NCBI GenBank assembly: GCA_965116905.1
Contig: OZ220732.1
Location: 2,496,001-2,560,000 of the forward strand
Direction of reading: 5' to 3'
From: Longimicrobiales bacterium
Lineage (GTDB): Bacteria; Gemmatimonadota; Gemmatimonadetes; Longimicrobiales; Gaopeijiaceae
DNA: 64,000 nt
Under the pieces are notes generated by a model. That model was not told the origin of the DNA. It worked only from the letters and a program-made list of their open reading frames with translations, and ran no database searches. This document shows, piece after piece, positions 24,286-45,213 of this stretch (positions are counted from its first letter, which is position 1; every line of letters begins with the position of its first letter). The position numbers and the translations under genes were made by a program.

Positions 24286-24313
24286 TTGATTATTGACGAT
24301 TTTCTGTTATAAT
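24286..24313 (+). promoter_or_regulatory. Sigma-70 promoter with extended -10, probably leaderless
   Basis: TTGATT-N16-TATAAT with TGn just upstream of -10; ATG 6 nt downstream. Confidence 0.7.
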
Positions 24314-24319
24314 CGACTT

Positions 24320-25525
24320 ATGATACATACATTTTCGGTATCCAATTACGGGTCCATACGTGAGGAAGTGACCCTCGATCTGCGAATCCCGGGTACGGCG
24401 CCGGACTTGGCTTGCTTCCGCCGGAGCGCAGCCAGGCCGGATGTTCGGCTGCCCGCGGTCGCCGTTCTGATTGGGCCAAACGGGTCGGGCAAGACGACAT
24501 TGCTGCGGGCGTTGGTGGACTTGGGGCGGATGGGTTCTTCGCCGACCGAACCCGTCACTCTGTTGCCATTCTCTTCGCGCGAGACAAGGTGGGCGCCGAC
24601 GCGCTTCGCCCTCGAGGGCGAAACAGATTTCCTGGCACCGGGCGAGTGTCCGCGAAGGTTCCGGTACGAACTGGAGATTGGACGGCAGTCGACGGACGAC
24701 GGGGGGGACGGCCCTATGTTCGTGAATCACGAAGCCTTGGTCCATTTTCCCAAGGGACGCCGCCGCAGACTCCTGGAGCGGCGATCCCCCAGGGAGCCGA
24801 TCTACGTTGCCCGGGAATTCGGTCTCACAGCCCGGGACGATCGCCTGAAGGGGGTCGAGCCCAACCGGTCGGCGGTCGCCACGCTGGCCTTGGTCAACGT
24901 GCCCGCCGCAAACCGGTTCGCGGAATACCTCAGCAACTCGCTGCGCGTCGCGAGCAACATCTCGGGCAATGACACTCTCACGCCGGATACTTCGACCGTC
25001 ATCGGGTGGTTGGAGGGTAGTGGTGAAGCAAGGGAGTGGGTGCGCGGACAAGTCCGACAAAGCGATCTCGGAATCGAGGACATCGAGGTCGTCGACGGAT
25101 TCGGTGGCAAGCACATCCGTTTCAATCACAGGGGATTGGATGGGCCGATCGTCCTCGGTCTGGAGTCCAGGGGTACTCGGAACCTGATTCACCTGCTGCC
25201 ATTGATCAGGTTGGCGCTGGATGTAACCGGATTGGCGGTTTTGGATGAAGTCGACGGTGCCCTTCACGTCGACACGTTGGCGGAGATCCTCAACCAGTTT
25301 CGGTCCCGCGAAACCAATCCGCGCAATGCCCAGCTCATCTTGTCCTCGCACCACGTCGGCTTGCTCGACGATCTGGAAAAGGAAGAGGTCTTCATCGTCG
25401 AGAAGGACGATAGCGGTGCCACCCGGGTGTACGGCGCACAAGACGTCAAGGGTCTGCGCCGTGACGTGCGTCTGTATCCGAAGTACCGGGCGGGTGTGCT
25501 CGGCGGGCTGCCCAGAATCGGTTGA
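24320..25525 (+). CDS. AAA_21 / RloA-like ABC-type ATPase, no RloB partner
   Basis: FSVSNYGSI, GPNGSGKTTLL, ESRGT, LDEVDGALH, QLILSSHH, C-terminal YRAGVLGGLP. Confidence 0.85.
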   Translation: MIHTFSVSNYGSIREEVTLDLRIPGTAPDLACFRRSAARPDVRLPAVAVLIGPNGSGKTTLLRALVDLGRMGSSPTEPVTLLPFSSRETRWAPTRFALEGETDFLAPGECPRRFRYELEIGRQSTDDGGDGPMFVNHEALVHFPKGRRRRLLERRSPREPIYVAREFGLTARDDRLKGVEPNRSAVATLALVNVPAANRFAEYLSNSLRVASNISGNDTLTPDTSTVIGWLEGSGEAREWVRGQVRQSDLGIEDIEVVDGFGGKHIRFNHRGLDGPIVLGLESRGTRNLIHLLPLIRLALDVTGLAVLDEVDGALHVDTLAEILNQFRSRETNPRNAQLILSSHHVGLLDDLEKEEVFIVEKDDSGATRVYGAQDVKGLRRDVRLYPKYRAGVLGGLPRIG

Positions 25526-29864: not shown

Positions 29865-30600
29865 TCAACCCCCAATCACCCCCAGCATCTCCCCCCGAAT
29901 CCGCCGCCAGTCCCGACCCAGGTCCACCGTCCGCGCCTGAATACGGAACCCCTCGAGCCACACCTCGGCCCTCAGCGGCTCGTCGCCCACCTGCGGATAC
30001 AGCAGGATGCCCTCGTGCCGTGCCCCGTCCGGCTGGGTGGCCTGGCGGTTCCGCAGGTACGCGAGCAGTTGGCGGCGTTCGGGTGACTCGAGGATGACGT
30101 CCGCTTCCATGACGGGGATCCGTGCGCGATTGGCGGCGTCCGTGGCGTCGGTGCCCGCCCAGTCGATCCGGCGGCGGCCTCCCGGATTCACCCGGTAGAG
30201 GCGCTGCTCGCGCTCGTAGAATCCCGTGACGAAGTCCTCGAAGAGCCTCCACATGGTGGCCTCGTCGCGTCGGAAGTCGCGGAAGGCGGTGTGGCCGGTC
30301 TTCTCGTCGACCATCGAGTTCCGGTGGAGGAGCCGGCACACCGAGAGCAGGTGGTGATAGACCCGGCGCTGGCCTCCGAGCTGGACCCGGGTGAAGGTGT
30401 TCCGCTTCAGCCGGACGCGCGACACGCCGTCGAGCCTGCGGTAGGCGGAGCGCACCTCGCCGCGGATGGATCGGTCGAGTGGGATCCGTGGGCTAGCAGG
30501 CTGCCCAGCGATGTGCGAAGGATGCGATTGGGCAGGATGTCCACCGACAGCTCCTCGAAGTCGCACGCGGCCCGGGCGCGTGACTGGCACCGCAAGTTGA
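29865..30600 (-). pseudogene. mcrC: Decayed mcrC
   Basis: Aligns to the intact McrC (CDFEELSVDILPNRILR, LFEDFVTGFYERE, MEADVIL, EGILLYP, TVDLGRDW) but is 5'-truncated, frameshifted near 30490 and lacks the D-x-K segment near 30071. Confidence 0.85.
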
Positions 30601-30790
30601 GCGATGCGAGGCACGCGTGGCAGGCCGACACCGACACGCTGATTCTGCTGGTCGCGGCCGGATTCCTGCTCTACCTTGTGAGACCACAGTCAGTGTGGTG
30701 GGGGTGGATTGGGGACGACATGACGTGGTCAGAACCGTGTGTCCACTCATGGGCACGGCACCGTAGCAACAAGGTCACAGAAAGCAATCA

Positions 30791-33034
30791 ATGCCCAAAC
30801 CATCCGCCGACCACCCCGCACTTCGCGCGGCCCGCCTTTGGCGCGATAGCTGCCTCTTGAACGAAGGATCCGTTTTCACCGAAAAGTCGCTCTGGACCTC
30901 GGACAATGTCGGATACCTAGTGCGCTACTACGTACAGAACCTGGACGATGGCGAGGGCGGGTTCTTCCAGAAGCTGGAGAGCCAATTGTCTAGGGCTCCC
31001 GCAAGCGCGAAGCAACTGGCGGCGGAGATGTTCTGGGTGATGTACCTGTTCTGTTCACCGGGATCAATGCAGCCCGGTACGAAGCGCCGCCAGATTCGCC
31101 AGGTCTGGGAATGGTCGGGCGAGCCACTTCCGGACGCCCCGTTTGAACTTGGGGAGGCACTTCAAGACGGCGTCGCCAACCCCGGCATGGCCTTCAATCA
31201 GCTTCGATGGAAGGAGTTTCTCTTTTTCATCGTCGCGATGAAGGCATGGACGGTGTCGTCAAGGCCGCAACGCGAGGCTCGGCTTGCAGACCCGTGGAGT
31301 CTCGCGGAGTGGCTGAAGGACCAGGACGAGACACGCACCCGTCAGCTGCGACACATGCTGTTGTACCTGCTCTTCCCAGATCACTTCGAGCCGTACGCTA
31401 CGGCGTTGCACAAAAGGACCATCGTGCGTGCGTTCACGAAGAAGTTCGGGGAAGATCCGGACCAAGTAGACTACAAAGACAGAATCGCCATTGACCGACA
31501 GCTTCTTGTCGTCCGCGAGAGGCTCCGAGCGGAAGGTGCAGCAGAGGATTTCGGTTTCCACGACGAGCCGTATCTGAAGGTTTGGCAGCCTGATACCGGA
31601 AAAGATGGCAGCGACGACGATCTTCCGACTCCCGAAAAGTCCGGTCGATGGTACCAGGAGAAGTTCGGGGAGGCTCGGGTGTGGGCGTTCGCGCCGGGTG
31701 CGGGTGCGCGGTACTGGGATGAATTCCAGGAGAAGGGGCTCATCGCCATTGGATGGGACCAACTGGGGGATCTTCGAGAGTTTGAAAGCAGGGAGGACAT
31801 CCACGAAGAACTCCGTGACATCCTCGACAAGCCGAATCCGCACAACGACTCGCTCGCATGCTATCAGTTTGCTCACGAGATGCGGCGCGGTGATTATGTG
31901 CTCGTCAAGCAAGGGCGCACGTTGCTGTTGGGCTATGGGGTCATCGAATCCGGCTATGAGTTTGACGAGAGCCGTCCCGAATTCCGACACACGCGGGCCG
32001 TGAAGTGGGAGAAGGCGGGTCGTTGGCGGTTCTCGAAGGAGCGTGCCATCACCACCAAGACCCTCACCGACTTCAGTCGCTACAAGCAGTGGCTTCATTT
32101 CGCCTTCCAACTCATGGAGGAGGGAGCGGACCCACCCCCGCCCCCCCCACCGGGCGACGAGCCCTACACTCGTGAAGCCGCTCTGAACGATCTCTTCCTC
32201 CCTGGAGCAGAGTTCGACCGTATCATCGACGCCCTGGAAAGGAAGAAGAACGTCGTCCTCGAAGGCCCTCCCGGTGTCGGCAAGACCTTCATAGCCAAGC
32301 GGCTGGCCTACCGGGTCATCGGATACAAGGCTCCCGAGAGGGTGCGGATGATCCAGTTCCACCAGAGCTACGCGTACGAGGATTTCATCCAGGGGTACCG
32401 GCCGACTGACGATGGGGGATTCGAGCTGCGCGACGGAGTGTTCCATACGTTCTGCCGGGAGGCGGCGGCGAATCCCAAAGACCGGTACGTCTTCATCATC
32501 GACGAGGTCAACCGCGGGAATCTCAGCAAGATCTTCGGTGAGCTGATGATGCTCATCGAGGCCGACAAACGGGGTGCCGAATACGCCGTTCCGCTGACGT
32601 ATTCGCCCGGTTCGGAGCCGTTCCACGTTCCCCCGAACCTCTACCTAATCGGGATGATGAACACGGCCGACCGGTCATTGGCGATGGTGGACTACGCGCT
32701 ACGTCGGCGGTTCGCGTTCATCCGCCTTCAGCCTGCTTTCGCGACCGACCAATTCAGCGATTTCCTCAACGCGGCAGAAGTGGAGGAGAATCTCGTCAAC
32801 AAAATCGTCGACCGGCTGTCGGCTCTGAACGAACGAATCCGTGCGGATCGTAAGAACCTCGGGCCGGGCTTCGAGATCGGACACAGCTTCTTCTGCCCGG
32901 GCGACGACGACGAGGGACTCGATGATTCCTGGTACGAGGCGATCGTCCGGCGTGAGATCGAGCCTCTGCTGCGGGAATACTGGTTCGACCGTCCCGAGCA
33001 CGTGGAGGAGCAAATCCGAGTACTACTGGCGTGA
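30791..33034 (+). CDS. mcrB: McrB family AAA+ GTPase with two N-terminal domains
   Basis: GPPGVGKT, QFHQSYAYEDFIQG, IDEVNRGN, MNTADRS, DYALRRRF, IGHSFF. Confidence 0.93.
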   Translation: MPKPSADHPALRAARLWRDSCLLNEGSVFTEKSLWTSDNVGYLVRYYVQNLDDGEGGFFQKLESQLSRAPASAKQLAAEMFWVMYLFCSPGSMQPGTKRRQIRQVWEWSGEPLPDAPFELGEALQDGVANPGMAFNQLRWKEFLFFIVAMKAWTVSSRPQREARLADPWSLAEWLKDQDETRTRQLRHMLLYLLFPDHFEPYATALHKRTIVRAFTKKFGEDPDQVDYKDRIAIDRQLLVVRERLRAEGAAEDFGFHDEPYLKVWQPDTGKDGSDDDLPTPEKSGRWYQEKFGEARVWAFAPGAGARYWDEFQEKGLIAIGWDQLGDLREFESREDIHEELRDILDKPNPHNDSLACYQFAHEMRRGDYVLVKQGRTLLLGYGVIESGYEFDESRPEFRHTRAVKWEKAGRWRFSKERAITTKTLTDFSRYKQWLHFAFQLMEEGADPPPPPPPGDEPYTREAALNDLFLPGAEFDRIIDALERKKNVVLEGPPGVGKTFIAKRLAYRVIGYKAPERVRMIQFHQSYAYEDFIQGYRPTDDGGFELRDGVFHTFCREAAANPKDRYVFIIDEVNRGNLSKIFGELMMLIEADKRGAEYAVPLTYSPGSEPFHVPPNLYLIGMMNTADRSLAMVDYALRRRFAFIRLQPAFATDQFSDFLNAAEVEENLVNKIVDRLSALNERIRADRKNLGPGFEIGHSFFCPGDDDEGLDDSWYEAIVRREIEPLLREYWFDRPEHVEEQIRVLLA

Positions 33035-34092
33035 AGATTCCGGTCAGGAACATCTACTATCTCCTCTGCTACGCTTGGGACCACGTGAGGGAAGGGGAGA
33101 CGGTCGATGTCGAGTCCGAGCAGTTTGGGGGGCTGGTCGACCTGTTCGCCAAGGTGTTGAACGAGGGCGCGTCGCGGCTCGTTTCGCGCGGCCTCGATCG
33201 TGACTACCTCGTCGTCCACGAGGATGTCCGGGGCCTCAAGGGAAAGCTCGATTTCGCGACCACGATCAAGAGGAACCTGCTCCTGAACGGCAAGACGCAC
33301 TGCGCCTTCGACGAACTTAGCCATGACGTGCCGCAGAACCAGATCCTCAGAGCGACGCTGCGCGGGCTGGCCTTGGTGCCCGCCCTCGACCCGGCCCTGA
33401 GACGGCATACCGAGCGCCTCTACCGGAAGCTGGACGCCGTCTCCGATGTCCCTCTGACCACGAGTCTGTTCCGCACCGTCCGCGTCCACCGGAACAACCG
33501 GTTCTACAGCTTCCTCCTGCACCTCTGCCGCATCATCCACGAGAATCTCCTGGTGAATCAGGAGCAGGGGACGGCGGAGTTCAACGACTTCCGCGAGGAC
33601 GAACACCAGATGGGGCTCCTCTTCCAGGAGTTCGTGAGGACCTTCTGTGAGCGCGAGACAGACTACAAGGTGAGCGCCCCGAAGATCGACTGGTTCGGTG
33701 CGGAGGCGAGCGAGACCGATCTGCGCCACCTGCCCCGCATGCAGACGGACATCGTGCTGCGGTCGCCGACGCGCACGATCATCGTGGACACCAAGTTCTA
33801 CAAGAACCCGCTGGACACGCGGTGGGAGGGCGAGCGGGTGAACGCGGGGAACCTGTACCAGGTCTTCTCCTATGTGACGAACTGGACAGCGAGGGCAGAG
33901 GCGGGCGAGCCCGAACCGGAAGGGTGGTTGCTGTATGCGGCGGTGGACGGCGGATTCGACTACCGGTTCGAGTTGATGGAGCGGCCGGTGCGGGTGTGCT
34001 CGGTGGATCTGGGGCAGAAGTGGAGGGGGATTGAGCGGGACTTGAGGGAGTTGGTGGGAAGCGCGGCGCCGATGCCGCTTCATCAGGTGTAG
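33031..34092 (+). CDS. mcrC: McrC family PD-(D/E)xK nuclease
   Basis: IPVRNIYYLLCYAW, LFQEFV, MQTDIVL...VDTKFY, NLYQVFSY; GTGA overlap with mcrB. Confidence 0.93.
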   Translation: MKIPVRNIYYLLCYAWDHVREGETVDVESEQFGGLVDLFAKVLNEGASRLVSRGLDRDYLVVHEDVRGLKGKLDFATTIKRNLLLNGKTHCAFDELSHDVPQNQILRATLRGLALVPALDPALRRHTERLYRKLDAVSDVPLTTSLFRTVRVHRNNRFYSFLLHLCRIIHENLLVNQEQGTAEFNDFREDEHQMGLLFQEFVRTFCERETDYKVSAPKIDWFGAEASETDLRHLPRMQTDIVLRSPTRTIIVDTKFYKNPLDTRWEGERVNAGNLYQVFSYVTNWTARAEAGEPEPEGWLLYAAVDGGFDYRFELMERPVRVCSVDLGQKWRGIERDLRELVGSAAPMPLHQV

Positions 34093-34198: not shown

Positions 34199-35101
34199 TC
34201 ACCCCTTGAATACATGCTCCCGATGATACTCTAGAAACCGCCGATGTGGCCGGTAGGTTTCTTGCTCCGGTAGCCGCAACTGCCCGTTCGGGTTCACCAG
34301 CGACAGTACGTTGCCGGGGATCGCGTTCCTCTTGAAGAGCAGGGTGTAGTCGTCGTCGACTGAGATCAGGCCGCGGTCGAACATCCAGTGAAAGGTGGAG
34401 CTCAGCGCGACGCCATTCCGGAGGCTGTCCGGTCCGTTGGCGTGCACGGGCCGGATGTGCGCGGCTTGGGCCTCGGCGCGCCCGCCGCCGTTGATGATCC
34501 GAAGACCGCTGATCGCGCAGGTGTTGTCGTAGGCCCGCTTGATCCCCGTGGCGAACACCCGGTCGCGAAAAGGTCGTCGTGAGAGTCGCTCGATGATGGG
34601 CCGGTCCGTCAGCTCCAGCCCACCGGGATCGGTGTGAATCCCTTCGCGGATACCGAATCGTTCGCGCCGGGCGGTCGCGGTCTCGAACCCGGCCGCCAGG
34701 ATCAGACTGTACTCGGCATCTGGCAGGAGCCGGACCGAACGCCCGAAAGCGCCCTTGTTCACCGAACCGTCTTCCTTCTGGAGTCCGCTCTCGTAAAAGA
34801 AGCCGTCCTCGCGGAAGGGCACTGGACGGTCGAATTCCAGATAGTCCGCGACATAGGCGTAGTAGTGATCGGTTCTCAGCGGATCGGCATCGATGCTCAC
34901 GATCCGGGCCGTCGCGAAATAAGACTGACGCCCTCCGCTACTGGAAAGGTGGGAGCTGGAGCGGCGAGGCTCGTAGTAGACGATCCAGTTGCCGACCGCG
35001 GCCCGCGCCGCGTTCAGGTAGGTGCGCGGGAAGTGGTATCGCTCCTCGGGAAGGTCGTCGTAGGACGGGTCAACTTTGGTGGTCAGGACGGCTTTGGGCA
35101 T
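34199..35101 (-). CDS. HNH endonuclease with putative PUA/EVE-like N-terminal reader
   Basis: RDRVF...AYDNTCAISG, EAQAAHIRPV..GPDSLRNGVALSSTFHWMFDRGLI; N-domain YDD.PEERYHFP, WIVYYE, YFATARI. Confidence 0.85.
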   Translation of the reverse strand: MPKAVLTTKVDPSYDDLPEERYHFPRTYLNAARAAVGNWIVYYEPRRSSSHLSSSGGRQSYFATARIVSIDADPLRTDHYYAYVADYLEFDRPVPFREDGFFYESGLQKEDGSVNKGAFGRSVRLLPDAEYSLILAAGFETATARRERFGIREGIHTDPGGLELTDRPIIERLSRRPFRDRVFATGIKRAYDNTCAISGLRIINGGGRAEAQAAHIRPVHANGPDSLRNGVALSSTFHWMFDRGLISVDDDYTLLFKRNAIPGNVLSLVNPNGQLRLPEQETYRPHRRFLEYHREHVFKG

Positions 35102-35108
35102 GGGTGGT

Positions 35109-35633
35109 TCAATACCCCCACGGGACCGGAATGCCCGGCTCCACCGGGCCGACCAGGTCGTCTGCGATGTCGGTCTCGACCAGGTTCCGGCAGATCCAGA
35201 TCCGGCACTTGGGAGAGTCGGTGCCGTTGCCCGGTTGAAAGACGAAGATCGCGAGTGCGCCGGTGTTTTCGGGATCGCGCAGCGGGGATGAGGTGCCGAG
35301 ATTGGTGATGCGTATCTGGGCCTGTGGTCTGCCCAAGAGGCCGTCGCCGATGTGCGGAACGCCCCGGACGCGGTGCTCCTGGACTCCGTGAGAGTCGATC
35401 TCGATGTCGAATTCGACGGTGGACGTTCCGCCATCCTCATCTAGCGACGAGAACGCGGGTTTGAGGAGGTCTCTCGGAACGCAGGGGCCAGGCTGCCGCG
35501 TTTGGGTGGCCGAGGTCTCGGTGCCGGAGAGGAACTTGGCGTGCCAGATCCAGCTGGCCCCGATCCAACGCGCGATCCAGTCCCTGAGTCGGTCGGTTTC
35601 GATCGGGCTGTATTGGTGGGGTGTTGTTTCCAT
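35109..35633 (-). CDS. Stand-alone EcoRII N-terminal effector-binding (B3-like) domain
   Basis: KFLSGTETSAT, IDSH, RIT..G..SPLRDPENTGALAIFVF, IWICR..E.DI.....GPVEPG parallel the EcoRII-N sequence as recalled; no catalytic domain follows. Confidence 0.75.
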   Translation of the reverse strand: METTPHQYSPIETDRLRDWIARWIGASWIWHAKFLSGTETSATQTRQPGPCVPRDLLKPAFSSLDEDGGTSTVEFDIEIDSHGVQEHRVRGVPHIGDGLLGRPQAQIRITNLGTSSPLRDPENTGALAIFVFQPGNGTDSPKCRIWICRNLVETDIADDLVGPVEPGIPVPWGY

Positions 35634-35814
35634 TGCGAGGCCTCCCGGGTCGGCTCTGCGTTAACCTGGTGTCGGTCGACGGGAGCGCAACAGTGTCCGG
35701 GTATCCAACTGTCGTTCGGCAGCCGAGATGTGGGAGCGGCCACCCGTGGGACGATTGTTGGTGCTTGGTGGAACTGCCATTTGACCTAACCGTGACGCCA
35801 GCCCAGGATTACGC

Positions 35815-36762
35815 ATGAGATATGATGATCCTGGAACGGCCGCCAGTGGGACCATCTTCGACCGGCGGTACGACGCGCAGGTTCGGACCGCGACCTTCGA
35901 ATGGCTGAATAGCCGGCGGTCTGAGCTGGGAGATGTCTTGCCCCGTACCGTGCTCGCGCGGGGCTTCGAGTTCCGGGGGAAGAGAATCTATGTCATAGGC
36001 CCGCAGGGGATCTTCAAGCCTGCTGCGCTACGAATCCCCTTGTCAATTACGACAAGCCCCAAGGGGCCCTACCGGGATGAATTCGGCCCGGATGGTTTCC
36101 TCCGATACCGATACCGAGAGACGGGCCCTGACCATCGTGACAACGTTGGCTTGCGAGAGGCGATGCTGAATGCCTTGCCGCTGGTGTACTTCCATGGCAT
36201 TCTCCCCGGGAGATATGTGGCGGTCTGGCCAGTGTTTGTGGTTGCAGATTCGCGGAGCGGACGAGCTTTCTCCATCGCGGTGGACGACCCGGCTCATTTG
36301 GGCCTCTCCGGCGGGGTCGGAGAGGGGGCTCGGGTACGGCGCGAGTACGTGACGGTGCAGACGCGTCGCCGGCTTCACCAACAGGCCTTCCGTGAGCGGG
36401 TTTTGAGAGCTTATCAGCACCAATGCACGCTTTGCCAGCTCCGGCGTGACGAATTGCTCGACGCGGCCCATATCGTCCCGGATTCCGAGCCGGAGGGAGT
36501 GGCTAGCGTGAACAACGGTCTGGCACTATGCCGGTTGCACCACGCTGCCTTTGACCGGTTCTTCGTAGGCGTACGACCAAACTATGTCATCGAGGTTCGC
36601 CAGGACGTGATGGCTGAGCGTGATGGTCCGACTCTGCGACACGCGATCCAAGGACTGAATGGGCGCCGCATCGTCCTGCCCAGGCGGAAGGTCAACTACC
36701 CGGATCCCGAGGCGCTGTCGAAGCGCTATGAGCGGTTTCGGGAGAAGGCGAGGGCCTCGTAG
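35815..36762 (+). CDS. HNH endonuclease with putative SRA-like N-terminal domain
   Basis: RRLHQQAFRERVLRAYQHQCTLC, LLDAAHI, NGLALCRLHHAAFD; N-domain PYRD..GFLRYRY..DNVGLREA..PLVYF. Confidence 0.85.
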   Translation: MRYDDPGTAASGTIFDRRYDAQVRTATFEWLNSRRSELGDVLPRTVLARGFEFRGKRIYVIGPQGIFKPAALRIPLSITTSPKGPYRDEFGPDGFLRYRYRETGPDHRDNVGLREAMLNALPLVYFHGILPGRYVAVWPVFVVADSRSGRAFSIAVDDPAHLGLSGGVGEGARVRREYVTVQTRRRLHQQAFRERVLRAYQHQCTLCQLRRDELLDAAHIVPDSEPEGVASVNNGLALCRLHHAAFDRFFVGVRPNYVIEVRQDVMAERDGPTLRHAIQGLNGRRIVLPRRKVNYPDPEALSKRYERFREKARAS

Positions 36763-36912: not shown

Positions 36913-38412
36913 CTAATCGTCGTCCGGCGCCTCATAATCATAGAGCCCCGTCGGCCCTCGCGACCCGCGTGGCAACGGCGCTATGTCCTCCGGGAGGATG
37001 GGATCCGGTATCTCTATGGCGGGATTCGACAATCCAAGGGCAGGCAGCAGGAAGACAATGTCGGTGTCAGTCGGCGGCACCGACGATGATCCCCTCGCTC
37101 CGAGTTGCTTCGCGGTGGATCCAATCGATGTGGAAGTCCCCGGAACAAGCAAGTCGACATAGCGCCCGAAGTGCGGCCGCGGGTGCTGCCCGAATCGGCG
37201 GCGGAAACCGTCAAGTTGCGATCCACCCCCGACCAGAATCACACGAACATCTTTCCAGCGGTCGGTGTTCTTCTCCTTCTTGTAGGCGTCACCGAAGCTC
37301 GCGCTGTATGCGTCGAAACTGCGTGCAGCCACCTCGTCCGCGGCCTGGTCCAAGTCACTTGGATCGAGGGGCCGGCACCCCTCGCCCATGCGCACTTGTC
37401 GGTCAGCATGTAGCTCGGGCTTTGCCTCCCGAACCACCGGAAACAGAAGAGCCCTGTCGGTGTCCGACACCGCCAAGATGTCGAGTAGTCTATCGTCGAT
37501 ATCGTCGCACCCGACAAGAGCAGTCTTGGCTGAAAAGAAGAAGACGCAGTCTTCTTCCTCGGAACGGCGCAATTTGAACCACCCCAGGTCCGTCGTTCCC
37601 GCGCCGATGTCCACGATCGCGGTGTATCTTCGACTGTTGGGTACAGTGGACGCTAAAGCCGCCTCGCCCCCCTTAACGACTGCCGACGATTCGGGGACGA
37701 GCTCCCACCGCTTGTGCTCCCGGTCTGGCGAGCCGGTGCTTTCCCTGTTGAGGATTTCAATCCAGCGGTGCCAGAGAGCAGGATAGTCGTCTAGTTGCAG
37801 GTCGTCCGTCTCTGCGAAGTCCACGGCGGCGTCGAGAGCCGTCTGGTATCCGCGCTGGATTGGACCACCGTCCAGCTGCGACACCGGGATATCGAGATTG
37901 TATCGGAACTCGGAATTCGCGCCGTACTCTTCCATCGCCAACTCGCGGACTTGACCGAGGACCGCACTGAGATACACAGCGACAAGAAAGTGAGGATGTG
38001 TGCCGAGCGCCTGGGGAACCGGAGGCACTTCGGATGCGGCCAGGTGGCGCGGGTTCCCGTTGGTGGTAATCAGTGTTCGCTTGAGCGAGCGAAACACGGT
38101 GTCCGTGTCATGCTTCTCTGCCTCCACACCGAAGAGAAAACGAGAGTCGGTGAGGGCGATGGTAGACGGGAAGCTGAACCGTGAGAAGCCGGGCCGATCG
38201 GTGCCGAAATCAACGGCCCACGCCGGACGGCCCTTATCCAGCGAGCGGACGACCACTTTCGTCCCCGAGGTCCCGAAGTCGAGACCGATGAAGACGAACG
38301 CCACCGGCGCTACGGTCGCAGGAGGAGTCGCTTCCCCCTCGATCGAAGCGTGGGCAGTGCCACGCGGACGCCCGATGCGGAAGAGGCGGAGTAAGGAGCG
38401 CAGCCAGCTCAT
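36913..38412 (-). CDS. Actin/Hsp70-fold (ASKHA) ATPase, nucleotide-binding domain only
   Basis: Phosphate-1 IGLDFGTSGTKV, connect VPESSAVV, phosphate-2 VDIGAGTTDL, adenosine ILVGGGSQL; no room for a DnaK substrate domain. Confidence 0.8.
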   Translation of the reverse strand: MSWLRSLLRLFRIGRPRGTAHASIEGEATPPATVAPVAFVFIGLDFGTSGTKVVVRSLDKGRPAWAVDFGTDRPGFSRFSFPSTIALTDSRFLFGVEAEKHDTDTVFRSLKRTLITTNGNPRHLAASEVPPVPQALGTHPHFLVAVYLSAVLGQVRELAMEEYGANSEFRYNLDIPVSQLDGGPIQRGYQTALDAAVDFAETDDLQLDDYPALWHRWIEILNRESTGSPDREHKRWELVPESSAVVKGGEAALASTVPNSRRYTAIVDIGAGTTDLGWFKLRRSEEEDCVFFFSAKTALVGCDDIDDRLLDILAVSDTDRALLFPVVREAKPELHADRQVRMGEGCRPLDPSDLDQAADEVAARSFDAYSASFGDAYKKEKNTDRWKDVRVILVGGGSQLDGFRRRFGQHPRPHFGRYVDLLVPGTSTSIGSTAKQLGARGSSSVPPTDTDIVFLLPALGLSNPAIEIPDPILPEDIAPLPRGSRGPTGLYDYEAPDDD

Positions 38413-41400
38413 CCTGACCCTCCAATCTGAACCACCCCAGCACCTACGAGTTGAGGTTCCATGCTGATTCTCCTGTCTCCCTCGAGTTCACTTCGACGAG
38501 CCTCATACTCCTGCTTCATGTTTCGAATCTGACCGCGGTAGAGGCGAATAATCCTCCGATCCCGCCCCGTCGATTCCGCTTTCGCAAGCCGCTCCTGAAC
38601 CCTCCGCCGGTGGGTACGGTACCGTTTCTCAAGACTGGCGAGGCGCGTCTGTACGATCGCGTGGTTACGGTCTTCGGCGCGCTGCCGAATACCCGCAACG
38701 CGATCCTCAAACGCGTCGTAGCCATGTTCCAGCGCATCGTCGAGACTCCGTGAATCCGAAGGCTCCCGGCGGCCGGTCGTTCGTCCGTCTCGAATAAGCT
38801 CCCCAAGAAGCAGTGAGCAGGCCCTTTCGTCCGGCACCGAGAATCCGTCAGAGCGGGACGACAGCCCAACGAAGATGGCGTCCAGTCGCTTGCGCTCGGC
38901 TCCCGCCTCGATGCGTACGGCGAACAATAGAAAGAGATATGCACCGGCAGCGGCGATCTGTGATTGGTGGAGTCGGAGCCGCGATACCGAGTGGAGTTGG
39001 TCACGGTTGTCGCGATAATACTGAACCGCCAACTGTACCACGGGATGGTGGGCGGCGAGAAACTCAGTATCGGGATGGTCGAAGGCGACTTGGGAATCGA
39101 ACGTAACCGGAACACGTCTGGACAGCGATTTCTGAAGGAATCGCTGCCGTGCAGCGCTGGGCGGCAACTGCCGCGTGGCCATGTCGAACTCGTGGCTAAC
39201 ACGAAGGGTACGTACACCCTTGCGCCGAGCGGAGCCCAGTTCTACTTGAGGGTGTGCCCGTTCCAGGAAGCCCAATACGAAGGCCTCGCGATCGGACGCA
39301 CCGAGAAGTTCACCGCCACGCATGATCCGGTTCAACTGGTCCTCGAAGTAGCCGTCTCCGCTGACAAGTCTGTCGGCTTCAGCCTCCAGCTTCTCGAGTT
39401 CGCGGCGCCGGTTTTCGATTGCGCGAGCGCTTTGTTCGATTCGTTTGCTCTCTTCCTCGGGCGTAAGACGGCTTGAAAGCAGCTGCCGTGTGAGGCGTCC
39501 GATCTCTTCGCCGACAATAGCCTCAAGATCGCCAAGTGTTCGCTCAAAGATGCCGATCCGGCGGTAGAGGCGATTGAGGACCCGATCCTCGATCGTGTCT
39601 TCGAGAGTAAAGTTAAAGATCAGGATTCGATCAGACTCCTGGCCTAGGCGGTCGACACGTCCGATCCTCTGTTCGACTCGCATCGGGTTCCAGGGCAGGT
39701 CATAGTTGATAATGATGTGGCAGAACTGAAAATCGAGGCCCTCACTGCCCACTTCGGAGGAGAGCAGGAGCCGGACATCCGGATCCTCACGGAATCGTCT
39801 CATCCGCTTTCCACGGTCGTCGCGGTCTGGGCGGCGAGGATCACTCTTGATGCCGCCGTGAATCAACTCACACGGTATTCCGTCCCGGTCTAGGCGATCC
39901 TTCAGGTAGTGCAGGGTGGCCTTGTAGTAGGCAAAAAGAATAATCTTCCTGCCAGGTTCCTCGTCATCGAGGCGCACGAGTATGCGGAGAAGCTGATCGT
40001 ATTTCGTGTCTGTATCTCCTAGGCCACGCGCGGCGTCTACCACCCTTTGACTAATCTTGATTGCAACGGATTTGGGAATCTCTTCAAGGTCGTGGACCTC
40101 GGCGTCAACCTCGTCTTCGAGCTTCCATGTCGCCCGTCCTATGAACCGGTCCCGGGCTGCCGGCATGCAGGATGCCGCTTGCCGCTGCGCTGCCATTATT
40201 GCGAAATATTTGATCGCTCCTGTGTCGTTGGGTGCGTTGTCGCGGACGAATTCTGTTACAGCATCGTAGAATTCACCCTCCGCTGGAGTCAGCGCAACAG
40301 AGACAACGCTCGGGGTTCGCATGGTTGCGTCGGCGAAGACGTCGCGTTTCTTTGTGCGGGAAAAGACATGGCTGAGAAGACTCAACTCCTCCAGATCGTG
40401 CTGCAGGTCCGCAGCCCATGCGTGTCCGCTGTCGTTGACGAACTCGGGAGGCTTGTCCAGTTCCCGCTGGACTCGCTCGTAGATCGGATTACCACCGAAG
40501 AAGCTCAGTCGCCCCCCCATCCCGAGCCTCTCGATGCGGTTCCGAATCTCATCGATGGGTGGTGGGATGGCGCGGGCCAGGCGCTGTGCCTCCACGACCG
40601 GTTCATTCGCGCGAAGACGGTCCTCGAAGATCTCGAAGTCATCGAACTCGGAGTCATCGAGTAGCCGGAAGAGGTTGAACAGGTTCTCCTCGCCGAGCTG
40701 GATGGGTGTGGCTGTTAGAAGGAGCACAGCGTGAGCGTTCTGGGCCAGAGCCCGAATGGTCCGGTGGCTCAGGGTCTGCCGATTGCGAAGATGGTGGGCC
40801 TCGTCGACGATCAGAAGGTCGAGTGGAGGAGGGGTCACATTCATGAGGTCAAGGTGGGCCTCATTGCGTACGGCCTGGAGCGAGATGATGTCCCGCGCCT
40901 CGCTGAGGTCCCCCTGTTGGGCTAGTCGCTGAAGCTGTTCCCTGAACTCCGGTGCCCCGATGATGCTGAATTCCTCGTCGAACCTATGCCACATCTCCTC
41001 GCGCCACTTCAAGCACAGCGCCGCAGGGCATACGATGAGCACGCGCCGCAGGGCTCGACGAGCCCGTTGCTCGATCAGCACCAAGCCTGCTTCGATCGTC
41101 TTACCCAAGCCCACTTCGTCGGCAATGAGAAGGCGCTGGTCGGGAGAGTCAAGGAACTTGAGGAGAGGCTTGTACTGGTGCGGATAGAAGGCAGTGCGCG
41201 ACCCCTGCAAGGAGTACAAGGTGTTGTCGAGTGGTGTGTCAAGCTTGTGGAAGGTGACAAGGCGTAGGAAGTCGTCCTTGTCACCAAAAGCGCCCCTGAG
41301 GAGGAGTTGGTCTGGTGATACGTCGGCCTTGAACCGAGTGAGATCCGCTTCGTGCACGACGATCAATCCGCCGGCGTGGAGCCGGATGCGATACCAGTAG

Positions 41401-41513
41401 GCACCGTTGCGCAGCTTAGGCGCGCGTATGACCTCTCCCACCTTGGAGCGGTCGCTCCGTAGCTGAACGCGATCGTCCGTTTCGAAGATGGGTCGTGGGA
41501 TTAGCGAGTCCAT
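38409..41513 (-). CDS. SNF2-family ATPase/helicase (RapA/DrmD-like)
   Basis: LIADEVGLGKTIE, VDEAHHLRN, LTATPIQ, EGLDFQ, NYDLPWNPMRVEQRIGRVDRLGQ; C-terminal coiled coil. Confidence 0.93.
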   Translation of the reverse strand: MDSLIPRPIFETDDRVQLRSDRSKVGEVIRAPKLRNGAYWYRIRLHAGGLIVVHEADLTRFKADVSPDQLLLRGAFGDKDDFLRLVTFHKLDTPLDNTLYSLQGSRTAFYPHQYKPLLKFLDSPDQRLLIADEVGLGKTIEAGLVLIEQRARRALRRVLIVCPAALCLKWREEMWHRFDEEFSIIGAPEFREQLQRLAQQGDLSEARDIISLQAVRNEAHLDLMNVTPPPLDLLIVDEAHHLRNRQTLSHRTIRALAQNAHAVLLLTATPIQLGEENLFNLFRLLDDSEFDDFEIFEDRLRANEPVVEAQRLARAIPPPIDEIRNRIERLGMGGRLSFFGGNPIYERVQRELDKPPEFVNDSGHAWAADLQHDLEELSLLSHVFSRTKKRDVFADATMRTPSVVSVALTPAEGEFYDAVTEFVRDNAPNDTGAIKYFAIMAAQRQAASCMPAARDRFIGRATWKLEDEVDAEVHDLEEIPKSVAIKISQRVVDAARGLGDTDTKYDQLLRILVRLDDEEPGRKIILFAYYKATLHYLKDRLDRDGIPCELIHGGIKSDPRRPDRDDRGKRMRRFREDPDVRLLLSSEVGSEGLDFQFCHIIINYDLPWNPMRVEQRIGRVDRLGQESDRILIFNFTLEDTIEDRVLNRLYRRIGIFERTLGDLEAIVGEEIGRLTRQLLSSRLTPEEESKRIEQSARAIENRRRELEKLEAEADRLVSGDGYFEDQLNRIMRGGELLGASDREAFVLGFLERAHPQVELGSARRKGVRTLRVSHEFDMATRQLPPSAARQRFLQKSLSRRVPVTFDSQVAFDHPDTEFLAAHHPVVQLAVQYYRDNRDQLHSVSRLRLHQSQIAAAGAYLFLLFAVRIEAGAERKRLDAIFVGLSSRSDGFSVPDERACSLLLGELIRDGRTTGRREPSDSRSLDDALEHGYDAFEDRVAGIRQRAEDRNHAIVQTRLASLEKRYRTHRRRVQERLAKAESTGRDRRIIRLYRGQIRNMKQEYEARRSELEGDRRISMEPQLVGAGVVQIGGSG

Positions 41514-41552: not shown

Positions 41553-42587
41553 CTAGGCCAGTTTTTCGAGGAGCTTCCGCAGTCTACCAATCTTGTTTCT
41601 GTTCTCCGGAGATAAGTCGTCGGGGCTGAAATGCATGATCTCGTTCCGCAAGTCCTTGACGTCGTGCAGCAACCTCACAAACACCCGCCGATCAATGGTC
41701 AGCTCGAGTCGCTGCCAATTCACATCCACCTCCACCAAGCGGACGATTTCACCAAAAGTCAAATCTGATGCCTCGTTGATCGTCCGTTCTTGATCGCGCG
41801 GATCCCTTGCTGCCGCAATCTCCTCCGTGGAGAACGCCTCATCGATGAGTAGGCGCAGTCGGTCCTCAATCTCTTGAAGTAGCAGAAAGGGAGCGGCCAA
41901 CTCATGGTACTTGAGACTGAGATCGCTGGTTGTCACGATACCCGTCAGTCGCTCGTCCCTGCCGACCACGAGCACCACCTCGTCGCGGACGATCTTCTCG
42001 ACGGCGTCGAGAAGAGGAGTATTGAGGCCAACCGTCGAGTAGTCTCTCTCAATGCAATCCCGTACAAACCGACAGTTGTCGTCTCCCTTCGTGGTTCTGG
42101 CGATGCCGATCGAACGCCAACTGATCATGCCGTCAATTCGACGCTTGTCTTGGGTGACCGGCAGCTGAGAGTAGTTGTGGATCATCATCTCGGTAACTGC
42201 GGCTGACAGGGTGCTATCCCGTGTCACGGTAACGACCCCGCTGGTTGCCGCAGGAAGCATGCCCACATACAACGCTGGATCTCTGGCTTCCGACTTGGTG
42301 GTACCATTGCCGGTTGGTTGATGGTCAGTCTTGCGAGAAGGGTCGTCATCATCTGTGCGTGTAGCAGACATGGGCAAGAATCGTACGAACGCGTCGATGT
42401 CGATAGTGGAGAAATCAGGATCGGTCGCGAGACGGAGTTCTTGAAGGGCGCTGCGGACGGTCCAGACCACCGAAGATCGGCGACGCTTATGTCCAAACCA
42501 GGACAGCAGAGTTCTTACCTTGGCCCGGCGGGGCTTCCCTGCATGGACTGACCGGGCCACGTCTCGCAGGGGATCGGGAGTTGACAC
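41553..42587 (-). CDS. CBS-pair protein with C-terminal HEPN-like domain
   Basis: CBS1 TLSAAVTEM..NYSQLPV..GMISW, CBS2 PLLDAV..VLVV..LTGIVTTSDL; EIEDRLR, LTFGE, RNEIMH (Rx4H); start GTG 42587 inferred. Confidence 0.8.
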   Translation of the reverse strand: MSTPDPLRDVARSVHAGKPRRAKVRTLLSWFGHKRRRSSVVWTVRSALQELRLATDPDFSTIDIDAFVRFLPMSATRTDDDDPSRKTDHQPTGNGTTKSEARDPALYVGMLPAATSGVVTVTRDSTLSAAVTEMMIHNYSQLPVTQDKRRIDGMISWRSIGIARTTKGDDNCRFVRDCIERDYSTVGLNTPLLDAVEKIVRDEVVLVVGRDERLTGIVTTSDLSLKYHELAAPFLLLQEIEDRLRLLIDEAFSTEEIAAARDPRDQERTINEASDLTFGEIVRLVEVDVNWQRLELTIDRRVFVRLLHDVKDLRNEIMHFSPDDLSPENRNKIGRLRKLLEKLA

Positions 42588-42688: not shown

Positions 42689-43618
42689 TCACCCCCGAAA
42701 CACCTCCACCCTGTGCCACGCCACCATCCCCCGATCCGGCGCGTCCTTCGCCCTCACCGGCGCCCGAATCGCCCTCCCCCTCAACCCCACCAACCGCCTA
42801 GCAGCCCGACTCCTCCCTCGCACCCCGCCAGACACCAGAATCCGAAACCCACCCCCCTTCCCCTCCAGCCCCATCGCCCCAAGGTCCAGCGCCTTGTGAT
42901 GCACGGAGCACAGCGCCAAGCCGTTGGGAACCACGTCCCGCCCATCGTGAGAATGCCACCGGATGTGCGCGGCCTCCAGCCCTAGCAAGCGGTCGCCAAA
43001 GCGGATGTCGTACTCGCACACGGCGCATCGTTCGTCGTACGCCTCAAGGACCGCCCTGCGGAAACGGGGATCCCGCGGCGTGTACTCCCTGACCTTCCTG
43101 CCCCTTCTGGGCATGGGTTCGTCGAGTCCGTCGGAGGAAGGCCCCGCCGCCAGTCGCACGGCGTCCAGGATGTCCTGATGGATCGATAGCGGAAAGTGTT
43201 CGGACAGGATCTGGTGCGCAGCGCGCGACACGAGTTCCGGGTGGTGCCACAGCAGGTCGTGGACATCCTGCCGGAATCCGCCCGTGATCCCGAGGCGCCT
43301 TGCTTCGCTGACGCGGATGTCTGCCGCCCGTCCCGTGGACAGTTGTGATTCCTCTGGTATCTCCCACAGGCGATCGTCGTTTCGCAATCTGCCAAACGGG
43401 TAGTGGACGCGGGGCGGCGTATCCGGTCGCCCGAACTCCTCCCACAGGGCCTTGAACCGCTCGTCCGCGGTCTCATATGGGATCAGCCGACCCTCCGGCC
43501 CCAAGCCGACACGGCCGAGCGCCAACAGCAGCATCAGCGGCTTGTGAGGTGCCCGACCGCCATGGCTTCGATCGATCCTGACGCCAGCCAACCGCGCAAG
43601 GAATTGTTCGGGAGTCAC
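42689..43618 (-). CDS. SBD-HNH, putative phosphorothioate-dependent restriction endonuclease
   Basis: RAPHKPLMLLLAL, YPFGRLRND..WE (sulfur-binding-domain pattern); RDPRFR..AYDERCAVC, LEAAHI, NGLALCSVHHKALD. Confidence 0.85.
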   Translation of the reverse strand: MTPEQFLARLAGVRIDRSHGGRAPHKPLMLLLALGRVGLGPEGRLIPYETADERFKALWEEFGRPDTPPRVHYPFGRLRNDDRLWEIPEESQLSTGRAADIRVSEARRLGITGGFRQDVHDLLWHHPELVSRAAHQILSEHFPLSIHQDILDAVRLAAGPSSDGLDEPMPRRGRKVREYTPRDPRFRRAVLEAYDERCAVCEYDIRFGDRLLGLEAAHIRWHSHDGRDVVPNGLALCSVHHKALDLGAMGLEGKGGGFRILVSGGVRGRSRAARRLVGLRGRAIRAPVRAKDAPDRGMVAWHRVEVFRG

Positions 43619-43688: not shown

Positions 43689-43729
43689 ATTGTAAACTTT
43701 AGTTGTCATTATGTCAATCGAAGTTGACA
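43689..43729 (-). promoter_or_regulatory. Near-consensus sigma-70 promoter for the leftward defence run, with a palindrome on -35
   Basis: Minus strand TTGACA(43717-43712)-N17-TACAAT(43694-43689); TGTCAA-N6-TTGACA at 43712-43729. Confidence 0.8.
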
Positions 43730-43758: not shown

Positions 43759-43792
43759 TTGACTCGCTCGTGACATATGTGTACTATGTACA
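43759..43792 (+). promoter_or_regulatory. Sigma-70 promoter and operator for the XRE gene
   Basis: TTGACT-N17-TACTAT; TGTAC-TAT-GTACA overlapping -10; ACATATGT in the spacer. Confidence 0.75.
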
Positions 43793-43826
43793 ACACACTA
43801 CCCACACAATCCACCCATCCCAACCC

Positions 43827-44180
43827 ATGACCCACTTCGGCCCCACCGTCCGCCAGATCCGCGAGACCCTTCGCGCATCCGACCGCCGCTTCTCCCTGCG
43901 GCAGGTCGCCCACCGCGTTGGAGTGGAGCCCGCGTACCTGAGCAAGATCGAACGCGGCGTCGCTGCTCCGCCCTCGGAGGCCACGACCGTGCGCCTGGCG
44001 AAGGAGCTGGACGAGGATCCGGACGTGTTTCTGGCCCTTGCCGGAAAGGTCTCGAGCGACCTGCAGGAGATCATTCGGAAGAGACCGCAGCTCTTCGCGC
44101 AGCTCATCCGGGAGCTGAAGGAGGCGCCCGACGAAGCCGTGTTCCGGGTCGTGCGGGTCGTGCGGGAGGGAGATTGGTAA
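43827..44180 (+). CDS. XRE-family HTH regulator
   Basis: FG..VRQIRE..SLRQVAHRVGVEPAYLSKIERG..PPSE. Confidence 0.9.
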   Translation: MTHFGPTVRQIRETLRASDRRFSLRQVAHRVGVEPAYLSKIERGVAAPPSEATTVRLAKELDEDPDVFLALAGKVSSDLQEIIRKRPQLFAQLIRELKEAPDEAVFRVVRVVREGDW

Positions 44181-44208
44181 GTCACTGAACAGAGGAGAAT
44201 CGCAGCCC

Positions 44209-45213
44209 ATGATCACGCTTGAGAGAGACCGGATGAGCTTCCGGTTCCCCGAAGTCCACCCCCAGGCCCGGTGCAGCGTCGAGTTCCAGCGCACCCTGCG
44301 GATTCCGGACGACGACCGGTCCTACCCGCTTCCTCCGGGACTCGGCTGCTTTCCACTCCGCCATGTCGACGACTTCGCGGACCGCCTCGCCGGGAAGACC
44401 TTGCACCGGGGTGGCGTGGTGATGCCCATGCATCAGGCCGAAGCCATGTGGCTGAACCTCGATCCCGGGTTTTCCGAATACCCCTGTGCGGTCAAGGTGG
44501 CTGCCGGGAAGGTGTGCGCGGTCAGCGGCGAGCCCTGGTCCGACGACCTCAACGCCAATCCGCAGAACTACCTGGTGGTCCCCGACCAGCCGTGGCTGGA
44601 TGGGTACTGCGTGGGAGAGGGCATCATCCGCCAGTTCGTCGCCATGCCGCTCGGCGAAGGATACACCGCGGAGGAGCAGCTGACCGGCGCCGCGGAGCAC
44701 GGCGGCCTGCAGATATCCGTCTGCCCCATGAAGCGCGAGGTGTACGAGAAGCTGTTCGGGGACCGGTTTCGGGCGATGGAGCACATGGTCTGCTACAGCC
44801 CGGCCCCAGCCCCTCACGAAATGGGCTTGGCCCCCGGTGGCCGGATGCGGCAGGAAATCTACGACGACGAATACGGCTTGGACGCGTGGGACGAGGAGCA
44901 CACGAGCCGTTGCTTCGTGACCATCGCCAACTCCAGGCAGTGGCTGGCGATCACCGGCGAGCACCCGCCCACAATCCCGCCGACGGCGCGCCACTACACC
45001 GACGCCGGACTACCCTGGTTCGACTATTACGATGGGGACCGGAAGGCGATATCGGGCTCGGAGTCGCTTGCGGGGCTGAAGAGTGTGGCTGAGACCGGGG
45101 TGGAGAAGGGTGAAGTGCCACTTCCGGAGAACGACCCGCTTGACGTGCCCGAGGTCCTGCGCATTGCGCCGGACAGAGAGCGCGTCGTCCGTGAGTATTC
45201 TGCCGAGGGTTGA
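44209..45213 (+). CDS. Conserved hypothetical protein (FQRTLRIPDD..LPPGLG family)
   Basis: GAGGAG RBS; motifs FQRTLRIPDD, EAMWL, QNYLVVP.QPWLDG, RQFVAMPLG.GYTAEEQLTG, MGLAPGG, GLPWF. Confidence 0.8.
   Translation: MITLERDRMSFRFPEVHPQARCSVEFQRTLRIPDDDRSYPLPPGLGCFPLRHVDDFADRLAGKTLHRGGVVMPMHQAEAMWLNLDPGFSEYPCAVKVAAGKVCAVSGEPWSDDLNANPQNYLVVPDQPWLDGYCVGEGIIRQFVAMPLGEGYTAEEQLTGAAEHGGLQISVCPMKREVYEKLFGDRFRAMEHMVCYSPAPAPHEMGLAPGGRMRQEIYDDEYGLDAWDEEHTSRCFVTIANSRQWLAITGEHPPTIPPTARHYTDAGLPWFDYYDGDRKAISGSESLAGLKSVAETGVEKGEVPLPENDPLDVPEVLRIAPDRERVVREYSAEG

Follow-up and report, generated by a model that had tools for sequence, protein, structure and literature searches.

A DS-11-family CBS-HEPN gene in a Longimicrobiales genomic island, a predicted ligand-gated anti-phage protein

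The window (i.e. the whole stretch of DNA that was analysed, 64,000 nucleotides from a Longimicrobiales genome) carries an island of lower GC content, 58-62% against 67-72% in its flanks. Together with the DS-11-family gene described here, this island holds McrB/McrC, three HNH nucleases, a SNF2 ATPase and an Hsp70-like protein, a context that fits a defence role. Features of the gene and of its immediate neighbours are summarized in Table 1. The scan for sigma-70-like consensus sites, from which the candidate promoter in the table was taken, gave three sites where 1.4 were expected.

Table 1. Position and basis of the features described at the DS-11 locus (window coordinates)
Feature	Coordinates	Strand	Basis
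Anti-phage gene of the DS-11 family (N-terminal domain, CBS pair and predicted Swt1-like HEPN domain)	41553..42587	-	344 aa; NCBIfam and alignment
Conserved N-terminal domain, residues 1-72	42372..42587	-	homologs and AlphaFold2 model
Variable linker, probably disordered, residues 73-102	42282..42371	-	pLDDT and conservation
CBS pair (Bateman module) at residues about 103-228, predicted to sense an adenosyl ligand	41904..42281	-	Pfam PF00571 and fold matches
Y139, counterpart of DS-11 Y157 (predicted adenine contact)	42171..42173	-	pairwise alignment
Predicted RNase domain of the Swt1-like HEPN type, residues about 229-344	41556..41903	-	homology
Rx4H motif R314-H319 (DS-11 R330, H335)	41631..41648	-	alignment
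DrmD/RapA-like SNF2 ATPase	38409..41513	-	PADLOC DrmD model, E 1.6e-176
Hsp70/actin-like protein whose start codon overlaps the stop of SNF2	36913..38412	-	ESM Atlas neighbours
Phosphorothioated-DNA-binding HNH restriction endonuclease	42689..43618	-	NCBIfam NF045808, 252 bits against a cut-off of 180
Sigma-70-like site, 11/12 matches, upstream of the HNH, DS-11, SNF2 and Hsp70-like run	43689..43717	-	consensus scan only

The GTG start at 42587 was backed by a matching start in 10 of the 11 close homologs printed, and an in-frame GTG upstream, at 42719, had no support from homolog starts. All motifs quoted in the first-pass annotation were recovered in this reading frame, namely VRTLLSWFGHKRRR at residues 24-37, EIEDRLR at 239-245 and RNEIMH at 314-319, and the two CBS repeats claimed there correspond to two stretches matched by Pfam PF00571 (E 3.8e-14). 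Likewise, the 39-bp gap said to separate the gene from the SNF2 gene holds with an SNF2 ATG at 41513, which aligned with the SNF2 start in a related locus (L002); the mechanical ORF caller placed this start 6 nt earlier, at a TTG. An AlphaFold2 model built from an alignment of 137 sequences (mean pLDDT 92.4) displayed a compact N-terminal domain (residues 1-72), a low-confidence linker, the CBS pair and a helical C-domain. Linker residues 73-102 had pLDDT block means of 49-68 and a mean conservation of 0.14, against 0.48-0.57 in the domains.

On sequence grounds, the gene is a member of family DS-11, a system that is itself already published and validated. The NCBIfam equivalog NF053863 (DS11_antiphage) was matched over its whole profile (1-305 of 305) with 336.1 bits for a cut-off of 260, a level that none of the 14 control genomes reached. 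Aligned with E. coli DS-11 (WP_000257686.1) over 339 columns, the window protein was 35% identical (E 2e-68); the reference used was the ORF in locus L001, whose letters match by eye the entry in Table S8 of PMC13092281. Both proteins show the same domain order, N-terminal domain included, with homology over the whole length, and both occur as a single gene in a mobile or defence context. The window protein differs by a shorter linker (344 vs 365 aa in total) and, unlike its E. coli counterpart, was found in a host of the Gemmatimonadota lineage, beside an unrelated SNF2/Hsp70-like pair. No PADLOC 2023 model matched it, nor did any entry of an annotated phage collection.

DS-11, from the DefensePredictor study, was described as a one-protein CBS+HEPN defence that works alone, from its native promoter, in E. 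coli MG1655 (PMC13092281). Protection, expressed as -log EOP, was 1.6-3.0 against T3 and 1.4-1.7 against Bas67, with mutant rows at -0.6 to 0. Substitutions Y157A, R330A and H335A each abolished defence, so that the R/H-to-A mutants suggested in the first-pass annotation already exist for E. coli DS-11. In the same source, AlphaFold3 placed ATP at Y157 (ipTM 0.88), the dimer model had an ipTM of 0.59, and the ligand was stated in 2026 to be still awaiting discovery.

The three residues mutated in E. coli (Y157, R330 and H335) correspond to Y139, R314 and H319 of the window protein in the pairwise alignment. Their conservation was counted in the best 150 of 638 cluster representatives at E up to 1e-30, 149 of which cover the motif region. 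The Rx4H motif, whose conservation the first-pass annotation had made a touchstone of its reading, was not lost in these homologs, since the arginine (R314) was present in 149/149 and the histidine (H319) in 147/149. E241 and R245 were conserved in all 149 as well, and the Y139 column displayed Y or F in 143, a motif conservation far beyond chance. Two family-typical residues are altered in the window protein, R37 (G in 120/144) and A232 (E in 122/149).

The C-domain is predicted to be a Swt1-like HEPN domain on the basis of its homology to DS-11, of the invariance of E241, R245 and R314 in the family alignment (the Rx4H motif plus an upstream glutamate) and of HEPN_Swt1 matches at a loose threshold. 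With E 0.05 as the limit, HEPN_Swt1 was matched by 34 of the 137 family members, the best of them at 4.3e-6; the window C-domain alone reached E 0.068, below the Pfam gathering score. A conserved glutamate upstream of Rx4H has a role in HEPN domains. The Swt1-like HEPN match that the first-pass annotation expected from HHpred had been obtained, at 98%, in the published analysis of E. coli DS-11 (PMC13092281). At the structural level, a single-sequence model of the C-domain was weak (pLDDT 65) and gave no Foldseek match at E up to 0.001; comparisons of the C-domain with the PDB by sequence or profile gave none either. VIA-align associated the C-domain with Csm6, AbiF, RnlA and LsoA at Z 5.2-5.8 over 91-119 aligned residues (for Csm6, a weak match with Z 5.8, rmsd 4.8 and 100 aligned), scores that unrelated helical bundles equalled or exceeded.

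The N-terminal domain was described as basic in the first-pass annotation, which is true of the window protein (14 K/R vs 7 D/E) but not of the family, whose median net charge is +1 (136 homologs). It was found in 145/150 representatives (best 150 of 638) and was duplicated in five proteins (P0132, P0203, P0226, P0228 and P0252), and some homologs display an additional Mrr_N (P0234), HTH_3 (P0215) or PF18755 (P0292) domain. In a profile search, 31 of 32 matches bore a precomputed CBS domain. Other searches with this domain gave no Pfam match, no credible PDB match, no usable ESM Atlas match and no match among proteins of 603-2000 aa; a CFAP115 match (E 5e-6 over 49 positions) was taken as chance. 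Its secondary structure in the AlphaFold2 model is helix-strand-helix-helix-strand-strand, an order that presumably resembles a winged helix. Conserved as it is, the domain lies outside the two domains given in the DS-11 HHpred table of PMC13092281.

For the CBS pair, the top Foldseek and VIA-align matches were all CBS pairs, with Z about 10. The sensor region is thus CBS by sequence and by fold, and the window protein displays neither a CARF nor a SAVED sensor. Most structural neighbours bind AMP, ADP or ATP. The CBS pair of MJ0100, solved with MTA and SAM (PDB 3kpb/3kpc), has the same fold (Z 10.0, rmsd 1.9, 117 aligned), but shows 21% identity with the window protein and carries no nuclease; it ties with many equally similar CBS pairs that bind AMP, c-di-AMP, ATP and others. 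Fold likeness does not tell CBS ligands apart. As for c-di-AMP, the source genome contains one DAC gene, about 345 kb away; this ligand is unlikely, since DS-11 works in MG1655 although the control genomes that gave a DAC match do not include E. coli.

The distribution of DS-11 was patchy both in the family (4 of 151 genomes) and in the phylum (6 of 401), source genome included. Several homologs appeared as lone extra genes among structural or regulatory phage genes, on prophage-like contigs (ORF starts in L021, L022, L025 and L026). Others lay beside unrelated defence genes, PD-T7-5 in L001 and PD-T4-3 in L015, as seen in a scan of 43 hand-picked neighbours. In L005 (146-16941), a BREX/Pgl operon carries a DS-11 homolog and a PDC-S11 gene as insertions between its pglX and brxC genes. 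In relatives L012 (6686-9464)/L051 and L052 (7117-9577), DS-11 is split by transposase-like insertions, and in L002 (12407-14928) such an insertion splits the Hsp70-like gene.

We consider it very probable that the window gene encodes a ligand-gated, stand-alone anti-phage protein of the DS-11 type. The ligand predicted for its CBS pair is an adenosine derivative whose level increases in the course of infection, most likely methylthioadenosine (MTA) from phage SAM lyases. The bound ligand would switch on the predicted HEPN RNase, presumably acting as a dimer, and the ensuing RNA cleavage would likely halt the infected cell. A CBS-gated HEPN RNase in anti-phage defence, as predicted in the first-pass annotation, thus gains support from DS-11 family membership, and the idea had already been published. 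CBS-HEPN fusions were noted in 2013 together with a proposal of ligand-regulated RNA stability (PMC3710099). The CBS(+HD)-HEPN fusions of Anantharaman et al. 2013 likewise join CBS to an active-looking HEPN domain and were predicted to be ligand-regulated, but the window protein is devoid of the HD domain and the 2013 proposal dealt with RNA-stability signalling, not with phage defence (PMC3710099). In the literature found on the system, no DS-11 protein is reported to have RNase activity, to bind a ligand or to arrest the cell.

In the CARF-HEPN RNases of type III CRISPR systems (Csm6/Csx1), a nucleotide sensor gates a HEPN dimer. By analogy, the window protein would follow the same logic, with a CBS pair where these enzymes have a CARF sensor. 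Another difference is that CARF and SAVED effectors have a cyclase partner (Cas10 or CD-NTase), whereas the source genome (97% complete) gave no SMODS or Cas10 match with PF22335 and PF18144, one model each. E. coli DS-11, too, is described as needing no dedicated signal synthase, unlike type III CRISPR effectors (PMC13092281).

The choice of MTA comes from the phage range. Out of a panel of 24 phages including T7, T3 and Bas67 are the only ones for which Table S7 of PMC13092281 has a DS-11 row. The 'Systems' sheet of this table (183 rows) appears to be restricted to pairs in which an effect was seen, and the lack of a T7 row in it therefore suggests that T7 is not blocked. A SAM lyase (PF23780) was detected in T3 and Bas67 (E 1.5e-43 and 6.4e-41, respectively), and no match was obtained in T7, T4, Bas26 and Bas1 (6 of the 24 panel phages checked in all). 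T7-like phages outside Teseptimavirus, e.g. Berlinvirus Bas67, carry a SAM-degrading enzyme and T7 carries Ocr (PMC8594841); SAM lyase forms MTA (PMC7877911). A tblastn search with the T3 enzyme gave 513 matches, and all 60 that were evenly sampled came from genomes of 37-46 kb. Seven of the 101 T3 ORFs matched Bas67 but not T7, i.e. the lyase, genes 0.6, 0.65 and 1.05, and three short ORFs. Of these seven, only the lyase is known to make an adenosine derivative.

DS-11 might be an MTA-activated RNase that punishes a SAM-destroying counter-defence, a suggestion that we put at rather less than an even chance. With the same reserve, DS-11 proteins could be regarded as guards of SAM-dependent defences (type I restriction, BREX) that sense MTA from phage SAM lyase. 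The insertion into the SAM-dependent BREX/Pgl operon of L005 fits such a guard role, but may be ordinary island clustering. An activating product fits better than the loss of an inhibitor because Y157A is silent and not toxic. SAM loss as the trigger, with SAM as the inhibitor, is accordingly less likely since one would then expect constitutive activity of the pocket mutant instead of silence. Against MTA, the argument draws on two related phages, a very small sample, and on an absent T7 row, MJ0100 is but one CBS pair among its equals, and six other T3 ORFs are common to Bas67 and undetected in T7; the pattern would be no different if other shared genes, or an inhibitor specific to T7, were responsible. 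In a literature search based on titles and abstract openings, with subscription journals mostly outside its scope, no link was encountered between SAM lyase or MTA and a CBS or DS-11 sensor, and the match between DS-11 target phages and SAM lyase is a lead that we did not find in print. As an annotation, the gene is ordinary, as it adds one more member, from a distant lineage, to a defence family already validated. If MTA were indeed the ligand, the metabolic by-product left by a phage anti-restriction enzyme would set off a defence RNase, the second messenger being made by the phage counter-defence enzyme with no bacterial cyclase. This would explain why DS-11 needs no cyclase, as well as the difference between T7 (Ocr) and T3 (SAM lyase).

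Two other triggers were considered, and both appear doubtful. According to the first, which we judge conceivable but improbable, the CBS pair would read a general metabolite shift in infection, such as the AMP/ADP/ATP ratio or Ap4A, in line with the ATP/AMP sensing suggested in the first-pass annotation. The ATP placed at Y157 by AlphaFold3 (ipTM 0.88, PMC13092281) and the prevalence of AMP, ADP or ATP binders among the fold neighbours agree with this reading, but only 2 of the 24 phages are listed as blocked in Table S7 of that source, and close relative T7 is not among them. Energy charge fits less well than a phage-made adenosine product because the phage range is narrow, and a general signal would be expected from more phages.

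According to the second, to which we would likewise give about one chance in four, a phage protein or nucleic acid would be recognized by the N-terminal domain or on the surface of the CBS pair, with the adenine nucleotide serving only as a structural cofactor of the dimer. Consistent with it are an N-terminal domain as conserved as the CBS pair and its occasional duplication or junction to Mrr_N, HTH_3 or PF18755, along with T3 genes 0.6, 0.65 and 1.05, which are shared with Bas67 and were not detected in T7. However, this domain matched no known function or fold in Pfam, PDB or ESM Atlas, and the essential Y157 (PMC13092281) points to a ligand pocket.

The reading of the gene as a stand-alone protein was also confronted with its linkage to the SNF2 and Hsp70-like genes. 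The first-pass annotation had proposed, as one option, that the protein responds to what the two ATPases encoded downstream alter. A three-gene system would then have DS-11 as an effector reading nucleotides turned over by the SNF2 and Hsp70-like proteins. The same strand, the 39-bp gap and the single promoter-like site upstream are in favour of such a system, together with the recurrence of DS-11 followed by SNF2 in L002, L027, L028 and L029. Yet, when 39 related loci were compared, 27 of which extend 2 kb or more downstream, SNF2 followed DS-11 in only 3 of these 27 informative loci (L002, L027 and L028), to which the short L029 adds a fourth case. All four are at 67-79% identity, and the 23 loci that fall below 50% and extend as far downstream all lack SNF2 there. 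In a tree of 34 rows (partial hits omitted), the SNF2-linked loci and the window formed one small clade, in which two were identical and which had a branch support of 84/49 on the full tree. The linkage therefore probably reflects one acquisition. Of the 401 genomes of the phylum, 6 had DS-11 and 7 had the Hsp70-like gene, but only 2 had both. Conversely, two same-genus genomes (L047 and L048) keep the pair, at 80-81% and 62-63% identity, in the absence of DS-11, and two others have DS-11 and not the pair. Since E. coli DS-11 moreover acts alone (PMC13092281), the claim of sensing these ATPases is not supported; the three-gene system, very unlikely in our estimation, was rejected on the linkage data, and the SNF2/Hsp70-like pair is a unit separate from DS-11.

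A CBS-HEPN protein that is inactive or devoted to tuning RNA stability to metabolites instead of defence, in line with the 2013 proposal of ligand-regulated RNA stability (PMC3710099), is the least credible reading, given the above-cut-off equivalog match to a validated defence family, the defence-island context, patchy distribution and prophage cargo, and the transposase-like insertions splitting DS-11 in L012/L051 and L052.

The pair itself (36913-41513, minus strand) recurred without DS-11 in L045-L048 and has no name in the libraries scanned. An Hsp70-like gene followed SNF2 in L002, L027, L028 and L045-L048. The Hsp70-like protein had no Pfam match; its ESM Atlas neighbours, at 0.96-0.98, were named hypothetical, putative chaperone or Hsp70 family. 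DISARM class 1, in which drmA, drmB, drmC and drmMI should adjoin a DrmD gene, was tried for SNF2 and rejected, as the protein scored 373 bits for an NCBIfam DrmD cut-off of 610 and the adjacent genes scanned were DS-11, the Hsp70-like gene and HNH.

Further observations concern relatives and neighbours of the gene. Haloarchaeal plasmid proteins H5-H11 matched the CBS-HEPN part (24-31% identity) and not the N-terminal domain, and may represent an archaeal relative family. In the island, three HNH_2 nucleases occur within 10 kb (34199-36762 and 42689-43618), only the last of which passed the phosphorothioate-restriction cut-off. At 29865-34092, the McrB-McrC pair on the plus strand is accompanied by a degenerate second McrC-like remnant (29865-30614) on the opposite strand. 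An ABC-type ATPase like AbiLi/AriA (24293-25525, plus strand; PADLOC E 1.3e-55) is probably part of another defence unit. Finally, 43770-45213 (plus strand) holds an HTH regulator followed by a 334-aa protein without family match, a homolog of which was found near the SNF2 pair in L045.
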